The notes: generated from the letters alone by a model not told the origin. Positions 2,112 through 33,669 are shown, counted from the stretch's first letter. The stretch: DNA of 64,000 nucleotides from a virus (IMGVR_UViG_2548877036_000005:14660-78659); one strand, 5' to 3'. Made by a program: numbers and translations.

Positions 2112-2320
2112 GTTTCGTGGCGTGTTCACCCCGCCACCACCACTGCTCACCATCACATTCACGCCTCGTCTCTGATTACAGGCTGGAGCGTGAACGTCAA
2201 ATGGTGGCTTTGGAGTCTGTTACTGGCGGTTATGTGGGTGATTACCGGTTTTGGCGGGATCAGGGCGGGCGTCTGATCGATTTCCGCGACTGGCTGAAAT
2301 TTAGCAAGAGGACAGTATGA
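2108..2320 (+). CDS. Hypothetical protein
   Basis: 4-bp overlaps with both neighbours. Confidence 0.6.
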   Translation: MSFVACSPRHHHCSPSHSRLVSDYRLERERQMVALESVTGGYVGDYRFWRDQGGRLIDFRDWLKFSKRTV

Positions 2321-3231
2321 CGATTTTGACCTGCATGAGGGGATACGTTGCGAGTGGGAAGTCGTCCCGTGCCCGTGAAATTGCAGAGGAGACGGGCGCG
2401 GTTGTCGTCAATAGGGATTTGTTGCGTCTTCAGCTTCTCGGCACCTACTGGACCGGCGACCAGGACGATGAGTGGCGGGTGACTGTAGCTGAGGAAGCCC
2501 AGGTGTTGGCGTTGATGCAGGCCGATATCCCGGTTGTTGTGGACGCTACTCACCTGATGCCGTCGTATCTACGGAAGTGGGCTCGCTGGGCTACCCGTTA
2601 CGGCTGGGACTTCGCCGTCGAGGACGTGAAGACCCCGATGGATGTGTGTTTGGAGCGGTTGCGGCGCCGGAACCTCGAATCGGATCGGATCATTGAGGCT
2701 TCTGTCCTGTTTAATCAGGCTAAGCGGTACCCGATTAATCGTTGGCCGGTGATTGAGAAGCGGAAATTTAATCCGGTACCAGTGGAGCGCGACAATGCTC
2801 TACCGAAGGCGGTCATTGTTGATATAGATGGCACCTTGGCCGAAAAATGCGACCGGAGCCCTTATGACTACACCAGGGTAGGCGAAGACCGTTTACACTG
2901 GGACGTGACCTGGCTGGTGGATTTACTGGCACTGGATGACTACCACGTGCTCATTGTTTCAGGCCGGGATGATACATGCCGCGTAGATACCATAAATTGG
3001 CTGGATGACAACGGCGTCCCTTACGACCACCTGTTCATGCGGGACACCGTGGCGGATGTTGACGTGTTCGGCGGAAAACTACCGGATTACGAAGTCAAGT
3101 ATCGACTGTTCAATTGGCATATCCGAAATAAATGGTGTGTCCATTATGTGATTGATGATCGCCGCCAGGTTATCGATATGTGGCGAGGCATCGGTCTACG
3201 GGTACTTGATGTAGCTGGAAATAACTTTTAG
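2317..3231 (+). CDS. Polynucleotide 5'-kinase/3'-phosphatase (T4 PseT-like)
   Basis: N-terminal P-loop GYVASGKSS and NRD; C-terminal HAD motifs DIDGT, SGR and IDDR. Confidence 0.92.
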   Translation: MTILTCMRGYVASGKSSRAREIAEETGAVVVNRDLLRLQLLGTYWTGDQDDEWRVTVAEEAQVLALMQADIPVVVDATHLMPSYLRKWARWATRYGWDFAVEDVKTPMDVCLERLRRRNLESDRIIEASVLFNQAKRYPINRWPVIEKRKFNPVPVERDNALPKAVIVDIDGTLAEKCDRSPYDYTRVGEDRLHWDVTWLVDLLALDDYHVLIVSGRDDTCRVDTINWLDDNGVPYDHLFMRDTVADVDVFGGKLPDYEVKYRLFNWHIRNKWCVHYVIDDRRQVIDMWRGIGLRVLDVAGNNF

Positions 3232-6921: not shown

Positions 6922-8208
6922 ATGACTAAGTTTGATGTACCGAAGAACGCTAATTATGTGGCCACGATTGTGGCTGTTCCTGAGCCGGTGGATTTGCCTG
7001 GCTTGGATAATCTTGTGGGGATTCCGCAGTTCGGGTACCAGGCGTTGACTACACGCGGTATCAGTAAGGGCGACCTTCGGGTGTTGTTTACGGCAGAAAC
7101 TCAATTGTCTGCCGAGTATGTGTACGAAAATTCTTTGTCGCGGGACAAAGAGCTGAATAAGTCTGATGAGACTGGCTATATCGAGAGGCATCGCCGCATC
7201 CGTGCTATTAAGCTGCGGAAACACCAGTCAGACGCTTTGTTGATGCCGTTGGAGTCTCTAGCCTACACAGGCTATGACGTGTCCACGTTGAAGCCGGGGG
7301 ATGTGTTCGACACCCTGAATGGGTTTGAGATTTGCCGTAAGTATGAGTTGCCGAAGCAGGCCCAGCCGAAGGCTTCGGGGCCGAAGATACGGCAGCGGGT
7401 GGATCAAAAGCTGTTCCCGATGCATCTGGACACTGAACATCTGTTCCGGAACTGGGACGTGTTCCGTGAGTCAAAGTGGGCTGTGATCACGCAGAAGCTT
7501 CACGGAACTAGCATCCGTATCGGTCGTGTTCCGGCGTTGCGGGATAAGGGCTGGCTGGAGCGTGTGGTGGTCAACAAGTGGCTGCGCATCCCTACTGCTG
7601 ATACCGCATATGAGGATGTTGCGGGCTCACGTCGGGTGATTAAGGGCCGCGACGATAACAACCACTACTACGAGTCTGATATTTGGGCTGAGTATGCGAA
7701 GCGTCTTGAGGGGATGATCCCGGAGAACTTTGTCGTGTACGGGGAGTTGATCGGCTGGGAGTCCAAGGATAAGCCGATTCAGCGGGGCTACACCTATGAC
7801 CTGGAGCCTGGTGAGCGCGAGTTGTACGTGTACCGGGTGGCGATGGTGAACGGTCAGGGTGTGATCGCGGATTTGTCGTGGGATGGCGTGGAGCAGTTCT
7901 GCGCCTCTATCGGCTTGAAGACAGTTCCCGTTCTCTGCCGCCCATGTATCGACACTGGTTACGGCACAGATGACCGCGATATGACCGCGCTGTACGCGTC
8001 AAGCTATCTCAATATTCAGTTCGCTGGCGGGCCGTTCTGGGAGCAAACACCCGTGCCGCTGTCCGACCCTAAGACTGTGGATGAAGGTATCTGTGTCCGC
8101 ATTGAGGGGCGGGTTCCACAAATATTCAAGGCGAAGTCTCCTCTGTTCCTGGAGCATGAAACTAAGTCGTTGGATGCCGGTGAGCTGGATTTGGAGAGTG
8201 CGGCTTAG
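6922..8208 (+). CDS. ATP-dependent RNA ligase (Rnl2/DRB0094-like, with N-terminal OB-like domain)
   Basis: Motif [25 protein letters not shown]. Confidence 0.85.
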
Positions 8209-13579: not shown

Positions 13580-14022
13580 GTGAAGAGGTTCGTGTTACGT
13601 CCAGTACGGGCGGGGAGAAGGGCTCGAAGTTGGCCCGATTTGATCTCGTGCCGGTTCGCCCCCTGACGGAGCTGGCTGAGCTGTACGGGCGTGGGGCGGC
13701 GAAGTATGAGGACCGGAACTGGGAGCGCGGGTATGACTGGGGGCTGTCGTATGCGGCTCTGTGTCGTCATCTGACGCAGTTTTGGGCTGGCCAGGACCGT
13801 GATGAGGAGACTGGCGCGAAGCACATCATTGCGGTTGCTTGGCATGCGTTTGCGTTGGCCCAGTTCATGGAGACCCATCCGGAGTTCGACAACCGGCCCA
13901 GTGGGGCTGTCGCTGATGCTCTTGGGGTTGATTTGGAGACCCGTAAGGATCTGGTAGAACGCGCTAAGAAAGCTGCCCAAGAGACCTGGAATAACTACTA
14001 TTGGGGTGGTTCTGTTGGATAG
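13576..14022 (+). CDS. dATP/dGTP diphosphohydrolase-domain protein (DUF5664-like)
   Basis: TGGEKG-x-K-x-x-RFDL, GAAKY-x-x-RNWERG, D-x-ETG-x-x-H. Confidence 0.85.
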   Translation: MSEEVRVTSSTGGEKGSKLARFDLVPVRPLTELAELYGRGAAKYEDRNWERGYDWGLSYAALCRHLTQFWAGQDRDEETGAKHIIAVAWHAFALAQFMETHPEFDNRPSGAVADALGVDLETRKDLVERAKKAAQETWNNYYWGGSVG

Positions 14023-14563
14023 CCCTGAGGTTTGGCGCCCCATTCCCGGATATGAGGGTCATTACGAGGTGTCTAACCTGGGGCGGGTCCGGTCGCTGGA
14101 TCGGTATATAGAGACGAAGCAAGGGCTTCGATTCCGCGCAGGGTGTATCCGTAAATTTGGCAAGCATGTTGGTGGGTACCTAGAGTTGCCGTTACTGCTG
14201 GATGGTAAGCAAAAGATGTTTACGGTTCATAGGCTGGTAATGCTTGCATTCGTCGGCGAACGACCTGAAGGCTTTGACATCTGTCACAATGACGGTGACA
14301 AAACTAATAATGAGCTATCTAACTTGCGGTACGACACTAAGAAGTCGAACGCTCAGGATTCGATACGCCATGGCACCAATTGGCAGCTGAGTAAAACTAG
14401 TTGTGTAAACGGTCACGAATTCACGGTCGATAACACCGGGTATAACGATAAGGGTCAACGCTGGTGTAAGGCTTGTAGGCGTGCGCAGGTTCGCGCGCAC
14501 TATTACAATAACCCGGAATATTATAAGGCTCGCAGTGAGCGTAGACGAACGAAGGTATCCTAA
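14006..14563 (+). CDS. NUMOD4-HNH homing endonuclease
   Basis: WRPIPGYEGHYEVSNLGRVRS; VHRLV ... CHNDGDKTNN ... NL. Confidence 0.92.
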   Translation: MVLLDSPEVWRPIPGYEGHYEVSNLGRVRSLDRYIETKQGLRFRAGCIRKFGKHVGGYLELPLLLDGKQKMFTVHRLVMLAFVGERPEGFDICHNDGDKTNNELSNLRYDTKKSNAQDSIRHGTNWQLSKTSCVNGHEFTVDNTGYNDKGQRWCKACRRAQVRAHYYNNPEYYKARSERRRTKVS

Positions 14564-16698: not shown

Positions 16699-16899
16699 AT
16701 GGCTGAGGAATGGTCTGAGGATCGTATTCGGGGGATTGTGCGGGATGAGTTGGCGGCGGCTGAGGCTGAGGCGTCTTTGATGATTGCTACTGAGCAGGCG
16801 TTGTATAAGGCTGTTTTTGACCAGTTTTTGGCTGATTCTGATCTTCCTGATGATGTGCGTGCGCAGTTGTCTAAGTTTGTGGATGATCTGCTTGGCTGA
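16699..16899 (+). CDS. Hypothetical protein
   Basis: RBS plus ATG; last ORF before the tRNA region. Confidence 0.6.
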   Translation: MAEEWSEDRIRGIVRDELAAAEAEASLMIATEQALYKAVFDQFLADSDLPDDVRAQLSKFVDDLLG

Positions 16900-16904
16900 G
16901 TTCG

Positions 16905-16978
16905 GCTGCCTTAGCTCAATCTGGTAGAGCAGCGGCTTTGTAACCCGCAGGTTGGCAGTTCAATTCTGCCAGGCAGCT
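16905..16978 (+). tRNA. tRNA-Thr(UGU)
   Basis: Acceptor GCTGCCT/AGGCAGC, D arm GCTC/GAGC, anticodon loop TTTGTAA, T arm GGCAG-TTCAATT-CTGCC. Confidence 0.9.
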
Positions 16979-16981
16979 CAA

Positions 16982-17087
16982 TGTGGGGTGAGGATCAGTG
17001 GGAGGGCCAGGGAAAGCTAGCTAGTACCTGGTGGCCGTGATCGGCGCATAGGGCGCAGGCAGCGGGTTTAATTCCCGCCGCCCCGCA
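16982..17087 (+). ncRNA. Aberrant tRNA-like RNA without a D arm
   Basis: TGTGGGGTG/CGCCCCGCA terminal stem, T arm GCGGG-TTTAATT-CCCGC, long internal stem and a GCGC hairpin. Confidence 0.55.
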
Positions 17088-17092
17088 GGTTT

Positions 17093-17164
17093 AGCGGTGT
17101 AGAGCAGTGGTAGCTTGTCGGGCTCATAACCCGAAGGTCGCATGTTCGACTCATGCCACCGCTA
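17093..17164 (+). tRNA. tRNA-Met(CAU), initiator-like anticodon stem
   Basis: AGCGGTG/CACCGCT, anticodon arm TCGGG-CTCATAA-CCCGA, T loop TTCGACT. Confidence 0.9.
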
Positions 17165-17312
17165 CGTAGGGAAATGGTGACGCCCCCGGTTTGATTCCGC
17201 GAATGGGTTGCCGGTGTCAGCCTTCTACCTGAGTGAAGGTCGAGCCACCTATGTTCCGGTGACTATTCAAGCCTTTTGGTTATGGACTCCCGGTGCAACA
17301 GTTCAGGTGGCC

Positions 17313-17386
17313 GCAAGGGTGTAGTTTCAATCAAAATACTGGGAGTCCAACCCCGGAGATGCAGGACGATCCTGCTGCCCGCGCCA
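17313..17386 (+). pseudogene. Degenerate tRNA (Gly UCC-like or Trp CCA-like)
   Basis: GGGTGTAGTTT start, CTGGG-AGTCCAAC-CCCGG arm, GCAGG/CCTGC arm with a shortened loop, ends TGCCCGCGCCA. Confidence 0.45.
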
Positions 17387-17426
17387 ATAAAAATGATATG
17401 TGCGTGATGCACGGAAAGAAGGCGTG

Positions 17427-17705
17427 ATGCCTAAAGAGTATATTGGTAGGGAACCACAAGAGCGTGGCTCTGTTAGTGTGTCGTGGGGCCGGGACCATTG
17501 TATGGTGCAGTTGTCTGTGGCCGGTCCAATCGGGTGGAGAAGCGACCGCTTGCCGTCGCCCGATCCCAAGGGTGTGCAGGTGTGTGGCTATTCACCTGAT
17601 GAAGATTTGGATTGGCATTTTAGCGTTAAGCACCGTAATGAGATCAACGATTTGATCCGTGTGCTTCGTAAGGCTCGTGATCAGGCTTTTGGCCGGGACG
17701 AGTAA
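17427..17705 (+). CDS. Hypothetical protein within the tRNA region
   Basis: RBS AGAAGG plus ATG; C-terminal EINDLIRVLRKARDQAFGRDE. Confidence 0.75.
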   Translation: MPKEYIGREPQERGSVSVSWGRDHCMVQLSVAGPIGWRSDRLPSPDPKGVQVCGYSPDEDLDWHFSVKHRNEINDLIRVLRKARDQAFGRDE

Positions 17706-17944
17706 ATAGACTTCGGGTTAGGCTACCCGCGATCCTCCTTTGGGTCGTGCCCACTCCTTTGGGGGCAACAAAAGGCCCCAGTAACGGTTGTATCGCCGTG
17801 CCCGTCTGGCCAGTTAGGGTGAATGATCCGCTGTTGTCATCGTTAGGGACATAAGCGGGCCGACGCTGACTAAATATCGGCCACCTAAAATGTGCCCAGG
17901 TGGGGTGCCTTCCCTGTTGAAATATCCTACCTAAGGAATAAGTT

Positions 17945-18148
17945 ATGCAGCGTATCGGCATTGAGCGCTACAAGCGGGAGTTACACGATAGCCCGGACGG
18001 ATGGCCCTATTCGGGGTTGATTGAGGGTAGTCGAGATGATGGTTCCCGTTGGATTATGTGGCTTGATGAGCAGGGCAGCCCCGCGTTGTTCTACGCGAAC
18101 CGTGATGAGTACGGTGGCGTGGTTGGTGACCCGGTGGCTTTGCAATAA
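17945..18148 (+). CDS. Hypothetical protein within the tRNA region
   Basis: AAGGA RBS plus ATG. Confidence 0.65.
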   Translation: MQRIGIERYKRELHDSPDGWPYSGLIEGSRDDGSRWIMWLDEQGSPALFYANRDEYGGVVGDPVALQ

Positions 18149-19000
18149 ATCTGCCCACCTGCATGCAAGGTGGAGCTGTAAATCCAGACGTGCATAGAAG
18201 CTGCACGGTCATGAAAGAGCACATACCGGCTGCTGGTGTCGGGTGTGTGTGCGCCTAGCGGATGGTGCGAAGATGTCCGCAGACGGCCACGCATGTTTTA
18301 TCTGACGTGGTTGGGGTGACACCGCTTTTAGGTGGTGAAGAAACCCGTGAGGTGTAAACGTGTCTGCCCTCCGCTGTGATAGCCGACAGCAGAGCGGGCG
18401 TGAGTGGAGTTTCCGACAGGGCGCTCATGCTTTCACCTTGTTAAGGTTGGACACCTTCGGGTAGGTGGAGAGGTTAACTCTGCGAAGCTAGGTGTCGTGC
18501 GGGAATAGGCCCCCCGTATTTTCTACCCAAAACCTGCTAGCCGGGATAGAAGTGCTAGCCCCATATTCCGAATGGGTTACGGAGGTAGTGATACCACCAC
18601 TGTGGAACCCCAGAACCGTCCCTGTAGCCCTCTTTTTTTTAGAGGGCAGATCAAACGGCTGGGTAGTTGCGCTGTGTCTATCCGTCTGGGGTTCTACGGC
18701 CCTGGGGTGATAGATGTGTGGCGAATGAGCTAATTCGTCACAGCTTGGCAAGCTAATCCTCCCAGCCCCCCCGTCCAGGGTTCTGCACTGGCTGGGTTTT
18801 AGGTTGCCCGTGATCCTAAACGGGCCGACTTGGCTCCCCGTTACTTGTTGCCCGGCATTCCCTTCTGTCGTCAACCCGAAGGATTAACTTGTGGGGATTG
18901 GGTGTCCCCGTACGCGACCAGGCTCTCGCGTCTGTTCAGTAGGGTGAACGCACGGAAACCGCCCAATCTTAAACGGCAAACGGTCATGTGCCCGCAATCT
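18149..19000 (+). ncRNA. Candidate large structured non-coding RNA
   Basis: ~850 nt without a credible RBS-led ORF; continuous succession of hairpins; flanked by tRNA-like elements. Confidence 0.45.
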
Positions 19001-19081
19001 TCACCTGTGCGCTCAAATGGTTAGAGCGGCTAGCGGTACCCAATCCGGCAGTGTGTCTCGGTTCAATTCCGGGCAGGTGAT
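19001..19081 (+). tRNA. tRNA-like gene with an abnormal anticodon arm (identity undetermined)
   Basis: TCACCTG/CAGGTGA acceptor, GCTC-AAATGGTTA-GAGC D arm, CTCGG-TTCAATT-CCGGG T arm; middle arm CGG-TACCCAAT-CCG. Confidence 0.65.
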
Positions 19082-19240
19082 CAGGGGATGCAACCTTTTC
19101 CAGAGAATGCTGCATCATCGCGTGGGTGCTGGAAACACCGCGAGGCGACGGAATGTAGGACTCACCCACCCGGCCTAAAAAAAGGGTGAACGGGAGGTAG
19201 ATATTTCTACGATCACGCTGGGTCCGTTAAGCCCATCTCA

Positions 19241-19300
19241 TAGACGACTCTGGTGGGGCCGGATACAGGTTGCGGAGGTTCGATTCCTTCATCGTCTACA
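19241..19300 (+). ncRNA. Mini tRNA-like fold (acceptor stem plus T arm)
   Basis: TAGACGA/TCGTCTA stem and GGAGG-TTCGATT-CCTTC arm, with only one short hairpin between. Confidence 0.5.
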
Positions 19301-19511
19301 AGGCATGGTTGGTGGTTCGAATCCGCCTGCGGTTATTGCCCTCTATGCATGGAGGGAGCTGGGTCTTAGTTCGCGCGAAAGCCACCCGGTGCGGTAATAC
19401 GTATACGTCTCAATTGGTAGAGCGGTGCCCCTCTACTTCCACCTTTCCCAGTCCCCTAACTCGCTGCGGATGCGCCAAGGATTGTGTTGGCGCTGAAAAT
19501 GGTGGACCAAT

Positions 19512-19584
19512 GTCTGGGTAGCTCAATTGGTAGAGCGGTGGTCTCCAAAGCCACTGGTTGCAGGTTCAAGTCCTGTCCCATTCG
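19512..19584 (+). tRNA. tRNA-Trp(CCA), two acceptor-stem mismatches
   Basis: GCTC-AATTGGTA-GAGC, GTGGT-CTCCAAA-GCCAC, GCAGG-TTCAAGT-CCTGT; acceptor GTCTGGG/CCCATTC. Confidence 0.85.
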
Positions 19585-19737
19585 CGGTTGCGCGGGGCAG
19601 GCGTTGGGCGGAACCGACCGTTCACCCCGCTCGCGTCCCGGCGCGGTTACGGCAGCACGTAAGGATCTGCCGATCCGGGCATAACTTTCTAGCTATTTAG
19701 CCCAGCTTGGCGTATTAAACCATGTGCAAAGTGAAAC

Positions 19738-19953
19738 TCATTCGGTGATGTTGAATCGTACGTTTTGACCGTTAACTATTTTCTGCACATTGGGGAATGG
19801 GATGCCGTATTGGTCAGCGATTTTGCGGTATGACCATCCCTCATTGTGGAGTTGTCGGATGAGTTCGTGGGATTGTCGGTAGAGTTCACTGGTTTCATCC
19901 ATTGAGCTTTTGAGTTCTTTGATTATTTCGGCCATCAGGTCAGGTGTGGTCAC
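19738..19953 (-). CDS. Small helix-turn-helix DNA-binding protein
   Basis: GWSYRKIADQYGIPFPNVQKIV; GTGA overlap start at 19953. Confidence 0.75.
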   Translation of the reverse strand: MTTPDLMAEIIKELKSSMDETSELYRQSHELIRQLHNEGWSYRKIADQYGIPFPNVQKIVNGQNVRFNITE

Positions 19954-32723: not shown

Positions 32724-33623
32724 ATGGGTGATCTTGACACATTCAAGGACCCTCGGCCCGATCTGGCCCTGGCTCCTCTGAATCTCACCATCATGTTGGC
32801 GGATTTCGACAAGGCTCCGGCTACGTCGCTTGAGTCGCCCACTGATGGTTCTCTTCTGATTCCGGTCGATTACGAGTCGATGGGTCATTTTGAGAAGAAG
32901 GCCGGTGCCACTGTCGGTATCGAGATGGACGGTAAGGACATTGAGGCGTATGGCGAGCTTGATCCGATTCGTCGGATTATCTCCAAGCGCACCGTGACTT
33001 TGCAGGCGTCTTTCTTTGAAAACAAGGCCCGCGTGCTGGGTGTTGTGTGGACTGAGGACTTCAAGAACGTCGATCCGTCTGATTTCGGTGGCGTGCTTCT
33101 GAAGGCTCCGAAGATTCCGAAGAACATCTTCTATCGGTGCGCTCTGGTTGGCCTGGATACTCGTGGTGCCGACGATGTTTACGTTTACTGGCTGCTGCCT
33201 AAGGTGCAGCTGGATTCGGTGGAGAACATCGAACTCAATGACGACAATGTTGTTGAGTACAAGGTGAAGCTGAAGGCTTTCGTTGACCCGGCTCTCGGGT
33301 ATTCGGTGGCTCAGGGCTTCGCTGGTCCGGGTTGGCGTGCGCTGGTGGATCAGGCTGGCTTTGCGGAGGCTCTGACTGCTATTTCGTCTACTCCGTCTTC
33401 GGTGTCGGTGACTGCGGCCACTGGGGCGTCTCACACCGCTCAGCTGGTGATTCATGGCGATAACGACATCAACTACACCCCGGATTGCACGTTCGTTTCG
33501 GCTGATCCTTCTAAGGCAACCGTTTCGGCGTCCGGTTTGGTGACTGGTGTTGCTACTGGTTCTACCAATATCACGGTTTCGAAGGGTTCTCTCACGGCCA
33601 CTGTCGCTGTGACTGTTACCTAG
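32724..33623 (+). CDS. Major tail protein with C-terminal Ig-like domain
   Basis: YG-x-x-x-P-x-R motif; Big_2-like KATVSASGLVTGVATG. Confidence 0.9.
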   Translation: MGDLDTFKDPRPDLALAPLNLTIMLADFDKAPATSLESPTDGSLLIPVDYESMGHFEKKAGATVGIEMDGKDIEAYGELDPIRRIISKRTVTLQASFFENKARVLGVVWTEDFKNVDPSDFGGVLLKAPKIPKNIFYRCALVGLDTRGADDVYVYWLLPKVQLDSVENIELNDDNVVEYKVKLKAFVDPALGYSVAQGFAGPGWRALVDQAGFAEALTAISSTPSSVSVTAATGASHTAQLVIHGDNDINYTPDCTFVSADPSKATVSASGLVTGVATGSTNITVSKGSLTATVAVTVT

Positions 33624-33632
33624 TTCGATCTT

Positions 33633-33669
33633 GGGGGTGGGGGCTTCTTTTTCGGGGCTCCCACCCCTC
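33633..33669 (+). terminator. Hairpin after the major tail gene
   Basis: GGGGTGGGGGC ... GCTCCCACCCC followed by an AT-rich run. Confidence 0.65.

Follow-up and report, generated by a model that had tools for sequence, protein, structure and literature searches.

The tRNA gene cluster of phage T4, which has a polynucleotide kinase (PNK) and an RNA ligase, includes two small stable RNAs, C and D (species 1 and 2), that are not tRNAs and are processed from the tRNA transcripts. An island that invites comparison lies at positions 16900 to 19700 of a 64,000-nucleotide stretch of viral DNA—here called the window—that constitutes bases 14660–78659 of a 78.7-kb IMG/VR provirus record, a mycobacterial prophage (IMGVR_UViG_2548877036_000005). 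The two share the presence of non-tRNA RNAs among phage tRNA genes; no sequence or structural relation to RNAs C and D, which were not themselves examined, was found. The island contains three decoding tRNA genes (Thr, Met, and Trp) interleaved with tRNA-like units designated p1, p2, p3, p4, and X, and we favor, with moderate confidence, the interpretation that these units are tRNA-derived, non-decoding RNAs that are kept by selection and act as tRNA mimics. What is new here is a variant of the Y-RNA-type tRNA mimics, together with an undescribed tRNA-like family.

Two described systems provide points of reference. Chen et al. (2014, PMC4201824) report that YrlA RNAs contain three stem-loops, namely T, acceptor-like, and D, arranged in this sequence, and that their ends form a Ro60-binding module with the motif GNCGAA(N)G; genes for them lie near Ro60 in 254 bacteria and in 22 phages, mycobacteriophages among them, and the YrlA of M. 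smegmatis is cleaved by RNase P and acquires a CCA. Mycobacteriophage tRNAs with anticodon-loop changes form the second; van den Berg et al. (2023, PMC10264068) propose that these changes allow escape from anticodon nucleases of the host. Those tRNAs resemble p2 and p3 in belonging to mycobacteriophage arrays and in having their changes mostly in the anticodon loop, the remainder of the tRNA being retained; however, they are canonical decoding tRNAs of cluster C1 found with ARAGORN and tRNAscan, whereas p2 and p3 have 8-nt loops and go uncalled. The terms 'tRNA-like', 'decoy', and 'pseudo' have no occurrences in the text of PMC10264068. The literature on non-canonical mycobacteriophage tRNAs, in the parts accessible to us and excluding the list of 22 phages with YrlA in the supplement of PMC4201824, yielded no description of X or p2.

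At default settings ARAGORN reports exactly three tRNA genes in the whole window, and Rfam at its gathering threshold reports the same three (Table 1). These results agree with an earlier reading of the sequence alone (the original prediction), which recognized only three near-normal tRNAs; the five tRNA-like pieces that it placed at 16982, 17313, 19001, 19241, and 19302 (p1–p5, the last being the 5′ part of X) are all present, and the PNK and RNA ligase that it named are indeed encoded. A permissive Rfam scan of 16700–19900 (E≤10) finds zero tRNAs beyond Thr, Met, and Trp, and short-range scans of p1–p5 give no tRNA match at E≤10 except for a 15.6-bit partial one to a T arm (19295–19335). Accordingly p1–p5 fail the 29-bit gathering threshold of RF00005, which the Thr, Met, and Trp tRNAs pass. 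Programs for finding tRNA genes see canonical cloverleaves only, and in this island the RNA genes that they miss outnumber those that they find.

Table 1. Features of the window referred to in the text, in order of position.
Feature	Position	Strand	Basis
Polynucleotide kinase/phosphatase (PNKP; kinase + HAD phosphatase)	2317..3231	+	PF25109, 4.5e-40; AAA_33; phrog_505
RNA ligase	6922..8208	+	PF09414, 3.6e-14; phrog_968, 2.3e-114
tRNA-Thr(TGT), canonical	16905..16979	+	ARAGORN; Rfam, 63.8 bits
p1, 107-nt tRNA-like unit between Thr and Met	16982..17088	+	Predicted fold, z = -2.0; unit scan
tRNA-Met(CAT), canonical	17093..17165	+	ARAGORN; Rfam, 69.3 bits
p2, conserved tRNA-like RNA	17309..17387	+	Predicted fold; 39 Mycobacterium phage records
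Small protein gene in island, 101 aa	17400..17705	+	phrog_10659, E 1.9e-39
Small protein gene in island, 67 aa	17945..18148	+	phrog_7834, E 1.6e-18
p3, Trp-tRNA-derived unit	19001..19081	+	Predicted fold; local alignment to tRNA-Trp of relatives
p4, 59-nt mini-unit	19241..19299	+	Predicted fold
X, 128-nt permuted tRNA-like RNA	19302..19429	+	Alignment A5 of 4 carriers; covariation; model R1
tRNA-Trp(CCA), canonical, two non-standard acceptor pairs	19512..19585	+	ARAGORN; Rfam, 57.9 bits

X, a structured and conserved RNA gene

X is a structured, conserved RNA gene in which parts of a tRNA recur in a different order. A 5-bp end stem is followed by a 4-nt link, a T arm, an 11-bp acceptor-like helix, the dinucleotide UA, a D arm, and one further base before the end stem closes. 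The 11-bp helix starts right after the T stem, in the manner of an acceptor strand, and its returning strand precedes the UA; it is closed by two hairpins, c with a UGCA loop and d with an invariant 11-nt loop (AGUUCGCGCGA). The loop of the D arm is AAUUGGUA. As modeled, X has the form of a tRNA with its opening in the anticodon stem and with a closed acceptor end. The piece flagged at 19302 is a clean T arm and represents the 5′ part of X; a copy of a D arm within X, at about 19405–19430, was not among the pieces recognized at first.

Four contexts of X are known: the window; L006, a locus of the closest relative, after tRNA-Asn; phage Omnicron, after tRNA-Trp; and a tRNA array of Mycolicibacterium palauense. 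Window positions 19299–19429 match L006 at 82% over 131 nt, between the tRNA-Asn and tRNA-His genes of that locus, the Omnicron copy is 77% identical over 156 nt, and that on the M. palauense contig lies between tRNA-Ala and tRNA-Ser. Covariation was assessed with four trimmed copies (alignment A5) over 38 pairs and 150 cells, using 500 shuffles and slid-partner controls. Ninety-eight percent of the cells pair, and 16 of the 38 pairs show double changes; four helices covary, with double changes at four of the five end-stem pairs and four of the 11 pairs of the long helix. No shuffle (0/500) matched the observed values on any measure, and slid partners pair at 39–50%. Because the end stem and the long helix covary, a chance junction of two 'remnant' tRNAs is ruled out.

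A covariance model of X, R1, scores 136–141 bits in three of the four carriers and 133.4 bits in Omnicron, which is the only other carrier found in 50,697 phage records and IMG/VR. Across 151 genomes of the family to which M. palauense belongs, R1 gives one strong match and nine weak ones at 25–31 bits. Of the weak matches whose alignments were viewed, most consisted of a T arm with a D arm after it, the arrangement found at junctions of neighboring tRNAs, and two were unclear; one of the genomes with a weak match has a TROVE gene, on another contig. Patterns derived from X found nothing in metagenomes and five stretches in species genomes, of which that of M. palauense alone is X (140.7 bits, against ≤18.4 for the others). 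A BLAST search of the island against 401 + 401 genomes returned just the X of M. palauense and host tRNA genes. In comparisons with 108 intact tRNAs of relatives, the T-arm piece of X is nearest to the 3′ part of tRNA-Asn, and the D-arm piece at 19405–19430 is nearest to the 5′ part of tRNA-Trp; the 3′ half of X is Trp/His-like.

X resembles the YrlA RNAs (RF02553) in the order of its parts and in the pairing of the RNA ends at the place of the anticodon stem of a tRNA. The prophage record has a YrlA-type element of its own, outside the window (G000:C1:8137–8201, equivalent to 2638–2702 of locus L117), to which RF02553 gives 47.2 bits against a cut-off of 69; G000 denotes the prophage record, and the genomes compared with it are G001, G002, G004, G006, G011, and G012. 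R1 aligns end to end with this element (L117 2637–2702) at 23.1 bits, and the 62-nt insert of X corresponds to a 3-nt loop there. X differs from YrlA in several respects. Its acceptor-like arm consists of the 11-bp helix plus two extra hairpins (about 62 nt more), and it is without the 5′ extension that carries GNCGAA(N)G, starting 2 nt after the preceding unit (alignment A5, by eye). The letters of the X loop, GCGCGAAAG, are a misfit to that motif and are changed in Omnicron. X also sits inside tRNA arrays, not beside a Ro60 gene. RF02553 scores of 15.8–18.2 bits in G001 and G012 cover just the upstream tRNA and the T arm of X. X is thus a YrlA-style core with a large branched insertion, and we class it by its probable way of working with the tRNA-like module of YrlA, without counting it among the members of that family. 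Y-RNA-style tRNA mimicry would then be found also free-standing in tRNA arrays without a Ro60 gene, which widens the places in which to search.

The YrlA-type RNA of the prophage lies about 90 nt downstream of a gene for a 466-aa DUF2828+DUF7788 protein (L117 1148–2548), assigned to phrog_850 'RNA-binding protein' (E 1.5e-140) and situated about 25 kb from X. Sub-threshold RF02553 matches near the DUF2828 gene are present in three of five relatives (G002, G004, and G006); those in G002 and G006 are downstream of it, and the DUF2828 gene of G004 was not searched for. The motif ACAGCAATTNAA occurs three times around the YrlA-type element, within L117 2565–2745 (by eye). A comparison of the DUF2828 protein with PDB sequences gave chance matches only, and a literature search on DUF2828 found no relevant paper.

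p2 and the clade-restricted units p1, p3, and p4

All four arms are present in the second conserved unit, p2. Its terminal helix is bulged, its D stem (4 bp) carries a 6-nt D loop that is without GG, a 5-bp stem bears an 8-nt 'anticodon' loop (AGUCCAAC), and its T stem (5 bp) has a T loop of 5 nt. The unit ends in G plus an encoded CCA. Positions 17316–17388 (73 nt) match 39 Mycobacterium phage records whose taxonomy line reads Fromanvirus, at 86.3% identity, with two records at 85.1%; the matches span 73–74 nt. p2 is therefore conserved across genera. In all 39 records the match ends at the start of an annotated tRNA-Trp gene. The element itself is annotated in none of them, and in a few a 'hypothetical protein' is drawn over it; it thus sits unannotated beside tRNA-Trp in 39 records of well-studied teaching-collection phages. 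Otherwise the Fromanvirus records share with the island, at the DNA level, tRNA genes only.

Tote and the window show 10 differences within the 71-nt p2 core, seven of them in stems of the model, and all seven keep the pair; one replaces A-U with G-C, and the rest exchange wobble and Watson-Crick pairs. Of the other three, one is in the T loop, one is at position 26, and one lies in the 3′ tail before the conserved G + CCA, where the changed base pairs with an upstream leader that lies outside the model. All 19 model pairs are kept in all three sequences (57 cells all pair). The first GGGYG may pair with the segment after the D loop in an alternative predicted fold. BigMau has one extra C, giving a loop of 9 nt, which argues against strict decoding by p2. 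A p2 covariance model, R2, found no further copy in 20 sources, the best other score being 19.2 bits for the tRNA-His of L006, and a pattern scan of IMG/VR for the p2 loop returned seven stretches, three of which are unrelated sequences.

In the predicted fold of p1, a 9-bp terminal stem directly follows a 5-bp T stem whose loop is TTTAATT; a long arm (about 50 nt) and a 4-bp hairpin are also present, and there is neither a D arm nor an anticodon loop. No homologue was found in the phage collection or IMG/VR, and the three stretches returned by a pattern scan are all unrelated. p1 and p2 have no significant local similarity to the 108 intact tRNAs of relatives. In p3 the 7-bp acceptor is perfect and the D and T stems each have 5 bp; a 4-nt insertion in the anticodon arm gives 3 bp, a 2×2 internal loop, and a further 3 bp closed by an 8-nt loop (UACCCAAU). 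The best local alignment of p3 is with tRNA-Trp genes from relatives and scores 50, where the null is 24.9±2.3, although relatives hold Pro/Tyr genes at its place, and its acceptor is unlike that of every Trp tRNA compared but still 7/7 paired. Pattern scans for p3 returned zero stretches. Unit p4 consists of a 7-bp acceptor, a single 6-bp hairpin, a 10-nt linker, and a T arm; it is without an anticodon arm, the gap between acceptor and T arm being just 26 nt, and occupies the position of tRNA-Asn in L006. We regard p1 and p4 as putative top-half units that would belong with the other mimics.

Both strands of the window were scanned for units of this kind—a T arm and, after it, a 7-nt strand whose bases all pair (7/7) with sequence upstream—and for comparison 40 first-order Markov random sequences generated from the dinucleotide transitions of the window were used. 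The window has six matches against a null mean of 0.75 (maximum 4), and five of the six are inside the island. The scan missed p4, in which one additional base separates the T stem from the acceptor strand, as well as tRNA-Trp, which has two acceptor mismatches. The match outside the island (33560–33642) is in the tail-gene region, overlaps the end of an open reading frame (ORF), and was taken as chance. None of the units has a 7-nt anticodon loop on a 5-bp stem, those of p2 and p3 being 8 nt and p1, p4, and X having none. In p1 (with 9 bp), p3, and p4 (with one extra base) the acceptor is stacked on the T stem, which has 5 bp and is capped by a 7-nt T loop; this is not so in p2, with its 5-nt T loop and bulged stem. 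The proposal that the acceptor/T half is preferentially retained does not hold as a common rule: X is a permuted module, p2 has four arms with altered loops, and p3 keeps its D arm.

Relaxed ARAGORN settings (-ps90/-ps80) add a 'Tyr(gta)' at 19001–19082, a 'Ser(cga)' at 19246–19335, two four-base-anticodon genes, and a fold at 16992–17086. The 'Tyr(gta)' is p3, which is called in no other way. The 'Ser' is an artefact in which the T arm of p4 is used as an anticodon arm, and a call at 18020–18107 is likewise an artefact, falling within a protein gene; permuted-tmRNA calls at -ps80 were treated as noise.

Selection or decay of the units, and their proposed processing

Contigs of four isolate assemblies (X1, X2, X3, and X6) were compared with the window over 16700–19900. 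Isolate X2 covers 18802–19510, with spacers diverged by about 3%, and has 13 located changes—nine substitutions and four indels—at 18919, 18994, 19162, 19177, 19187, 19201, 19209, 19216, 19433 (two events), 19452, 19458, and 19475. All 13 lie outside p3, p4, and X, which together occupy 268 of the 709 nt; the chance of this is (441/709)^13, or about 0.002. Isolate X1 shows no difference in p3, in p4, or in the 5′ part of X, has a single change in p1 (17048, in a hairpin loop), and has three in p2: in the D loop, in the T loop, and from U-G to C-G as in the Fromanvirus copy. p2 is retained in X1, X3, and X6. Recombination joints fall at unit borders, for example at 17388, the last base of p2; the units thus behave like exchangeable cassettes, internally conserved and individually dispensable.

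The units are tightly packed—p1 lies two bases after tRNA-Thr and four before tRNA-Met, and two bases separate p4 from X—and have tRNA-like top halves, for which reasons we infer that they would share transcripts with the tRNAs, from which RNase P and RNase Z would free them. As free RNAs they would present a tRNA elbow, a top half, or both to proteins that read tRNA shape, outside translation. X, as our best guess, would act in the manner of a Y RNA, together with an RNA-quality-control protein that may be Ro-like. In p2 and p3, the CCAA kept by both 8-nt loops suggests mimicry of the tRNA-Trp anticodon loop. If such mimics bind host tRNA-directed toxins or the RNA-repair proteins of the phage, the debate on why phages carry tRNAs would gain a further layer.

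A number of observations weigh against selected tRNA mimics. The structure of X is deduced from four sequences; RF02553 has no match on X at E≤10, X failing its 69-bit gathering score; TROVE (Ro60) is found in neither G000 nor M. palauense (G011); and a DUF2828 gene is found in none of the three other X carriers (G001, G012, and G011). Covariation in p2 is not significant, there being one double change, a value reached by 158 of 500 shuffles; since this formal test is weak, the case for p2 rests on conservation and not on proven structure. For p1, p3, and p4 no homologue was found beyond the immediate clade. A tenth substitution in isolate X2 was counted but not placed and could fall in a unit. 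Isolate X1 has a 113-nt deletion between copies of a 19-nt D-arm repeat (19408 to 19522), which leaves the 5′ part of X attached to the tRNA-Trp body, so that neither should be functional; X3 has 156 other letters instead of Thr-p1-Met and, while keeping p2, is without p3, p4, and X; and X6 has Met and p2 only. To these is added the state of the arrays in more distant relatives, which have 9–16 tRNAs by ARAGORN (10–16 Rfam matches, E≤1) at the same place relative to the terminase gene.

These relatives were identified through the large terminase, which finds 19 related loci in IMG/VR, L006 at 81% and the others at 57–60%; in the phage collection the nearest named relatives are Mycobacterium phages such as Snenia, Lumos, and Clautastrophe (59%), which we take to be members of cluster L. 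Their tRNA order is Leu-Thr-Met-Ile, a gap, and then Pro-Tyr-(Phe)-Trp-Leu-(His)-Gln-Glu-Gly-Lys-(Ala)-Cys-Asn. The window retains Thr, Met, and Trp in this order, and L006 retains Asn and His only. Judged by gene order, the island is a reduced and mosaic version of the large tRNA array that characterizes the lineage. Comparable extra units were sought at 11 array loci of relatives, and none was found but X, a tRNA-His missed by ARAGORN, and T-arm motifs that are chance-like or acceptor-less. A 56-nt 'mini unit' in three relatives is this tRNA-His, which has an encoded CCA and is found by Rfam (L058 7138–7193, L059 4870–4925 on the reverse strand, and L060 4215–4270); ARAGORN tRNA counts for the lineage are thus undercounts.

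The reduction of an array whose order is shared among relatives is the strongest argument for simple pseudogenisation, in which the units are dying remnants of a large array and their good stems reflect recency, not selection. It is joined by the likeness of p3 to tRNA-Trp and of the two halves of X to Asn and to Trp/His, the two acceptor mismatches of tRNA-Trp, the loss of units in X1, X3, and X6, and the restriction of p1, p3, and p4 to the clade. Yet decay does not account for covariation in four helices of X, its end stem and long helix included, for the 85–86% conservation of p2 in a different phage genus with changes that preserve pairs, or for the absence of located changes from p3, p4, and X. 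Nor are p1 and p2 significantly similar to the intact tRNAs of relatives; compared with all 108, the pieces are not orthologues of the tRNAs at the same places. We consider decay unlikely; it is a fair rival for p1, and less so for p3 and p4. The original prediction had argued against random decay, and this stands for X (covariation), for p2 (conservation across lineages), and for p3, p4, and X together (0/13 changes), but not for the array overall, which is reduced and from which close relatives lose units. It had also named a sign of simple pseudogenes, intact orthologues with damage spread over all arms: X and p2 are conserved as such, with pairs kept, and for p1, p3, and p4 no orthologues were found.

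A second alternative, which we think quite improbable, is that the units are processing punctuation, that is, RNase P and RNase Z signals for neighboring RNAs and small mRNAs, and that the released pieces are functionless. The end of p2 is 12 nt upstream of the start of the 101-aa gene, units abut one another and the tRNAs, and the recombination joints of relatives at unit borders would fit as well. In Fromanvirus, however, p2 abuts a tRNA that needs no extra signal, no unit precedes the 67-aa gene, and the conservation of the two hairpins and the invariant 11-nt loop of X exceeds the requirements of a cleavage signal. For p2, punctuation is a reasonable competing explanation.

A more elaborate form of tRNA mimicry would make the units part of a kit to counter RNA damage, comprising a Ro-like protein and its Y RNA, PNKP, RNA ligase, and replacement tRNAs, with p2 and p3 as decoys for tRNA-Trp anticodon nucleases and X as a mimic of a broken tRNA that engages repair or Ro-like proteins. 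The free ends of X are at the place where a cut in the anticodon loop leaves ends, and the prophage encodes a bifunctional PNKP and an RNA ligase, as does T4, in which Pnkp and Rnl1 repair PrrC-cut tRNA-Lys (as cited in PMC10264068). In the prophage, unlike T4, no anticodon nuclease or target has been identified, and the enzymes occur also with canonical arrays: PNKP and RNA ligase are present in all three lineage relatives tested, one with a reduced array (G001) and two with full canonical arrays (G002 and G006), and neither is found in two of the three other X carriers, Omnicron (G012) and M. palauense (G011). The suggested tie between these enzymes and the mimics is thus not upheld, the enzymes being lineage-wide and independent of array type. 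We regard the complete kit as doubtful, of low probability.

That p2 and p3 are working decoders, charged for example as widened-loop Trp tRNAs or as four-base (UGGN) decoders, is the least probable explanation and a very remote one, since, for all that both 8-nt loops keep CCAA, p2 has its G + CCA at the expected place, and p3 keeps its acceptor, D, and T arms, neither has a U before the anticodon, p2 has a T loop of 5 nt and a D loop without GG, BigMau is a natural variant with a 9-nt loop, and there is no Rfam tRNA match at E≤10.

Other features of the region

The island forms the end of a rightward gene block, and leftward genes begin at 19738. A scan of the region for promoters and terminators gave fewer sites than in shuffled sequence. 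The 101-aa gene product has no Pfam match, and its DNA has only a weak match, to gene 186 of LittleE. The non-standard acceptor pairs of the tRNA-Trp gene are at positions 2-71 and 3-70; host tRNA-Trp genes in four isolates differ from window positions 19518–19577 at 7 of 60 positions.

An HNH endonuclease gene (NUMOD4 + HNH_3) is located at 14006–14563, 2.3 kb upstream of the island; HNH endonucleases adjoining mycobacteriophage tRNA arrays have been implicated in generating the diversity of tRNA repertoires, as Morgado and Vicente (2018, PMC5966550) note. About 420 nt at 18380–18801 are swapped for 58–61 other letters in three related isolates; this segment contains a hairpin with a T run (about 18630–18652) and a 128-aa minus-strand ORF without a Pfam match. 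The preceding block, at 18283–18379 (core 18305–18347), is kept in three isolates and matches L006 at 88% over 43 nt, about 130 nt upstream of the L006 tRNA-Asn. It contains a CACC/GGTG hairpin whose loop varies among relatives, and may be another small RNA or a control site.

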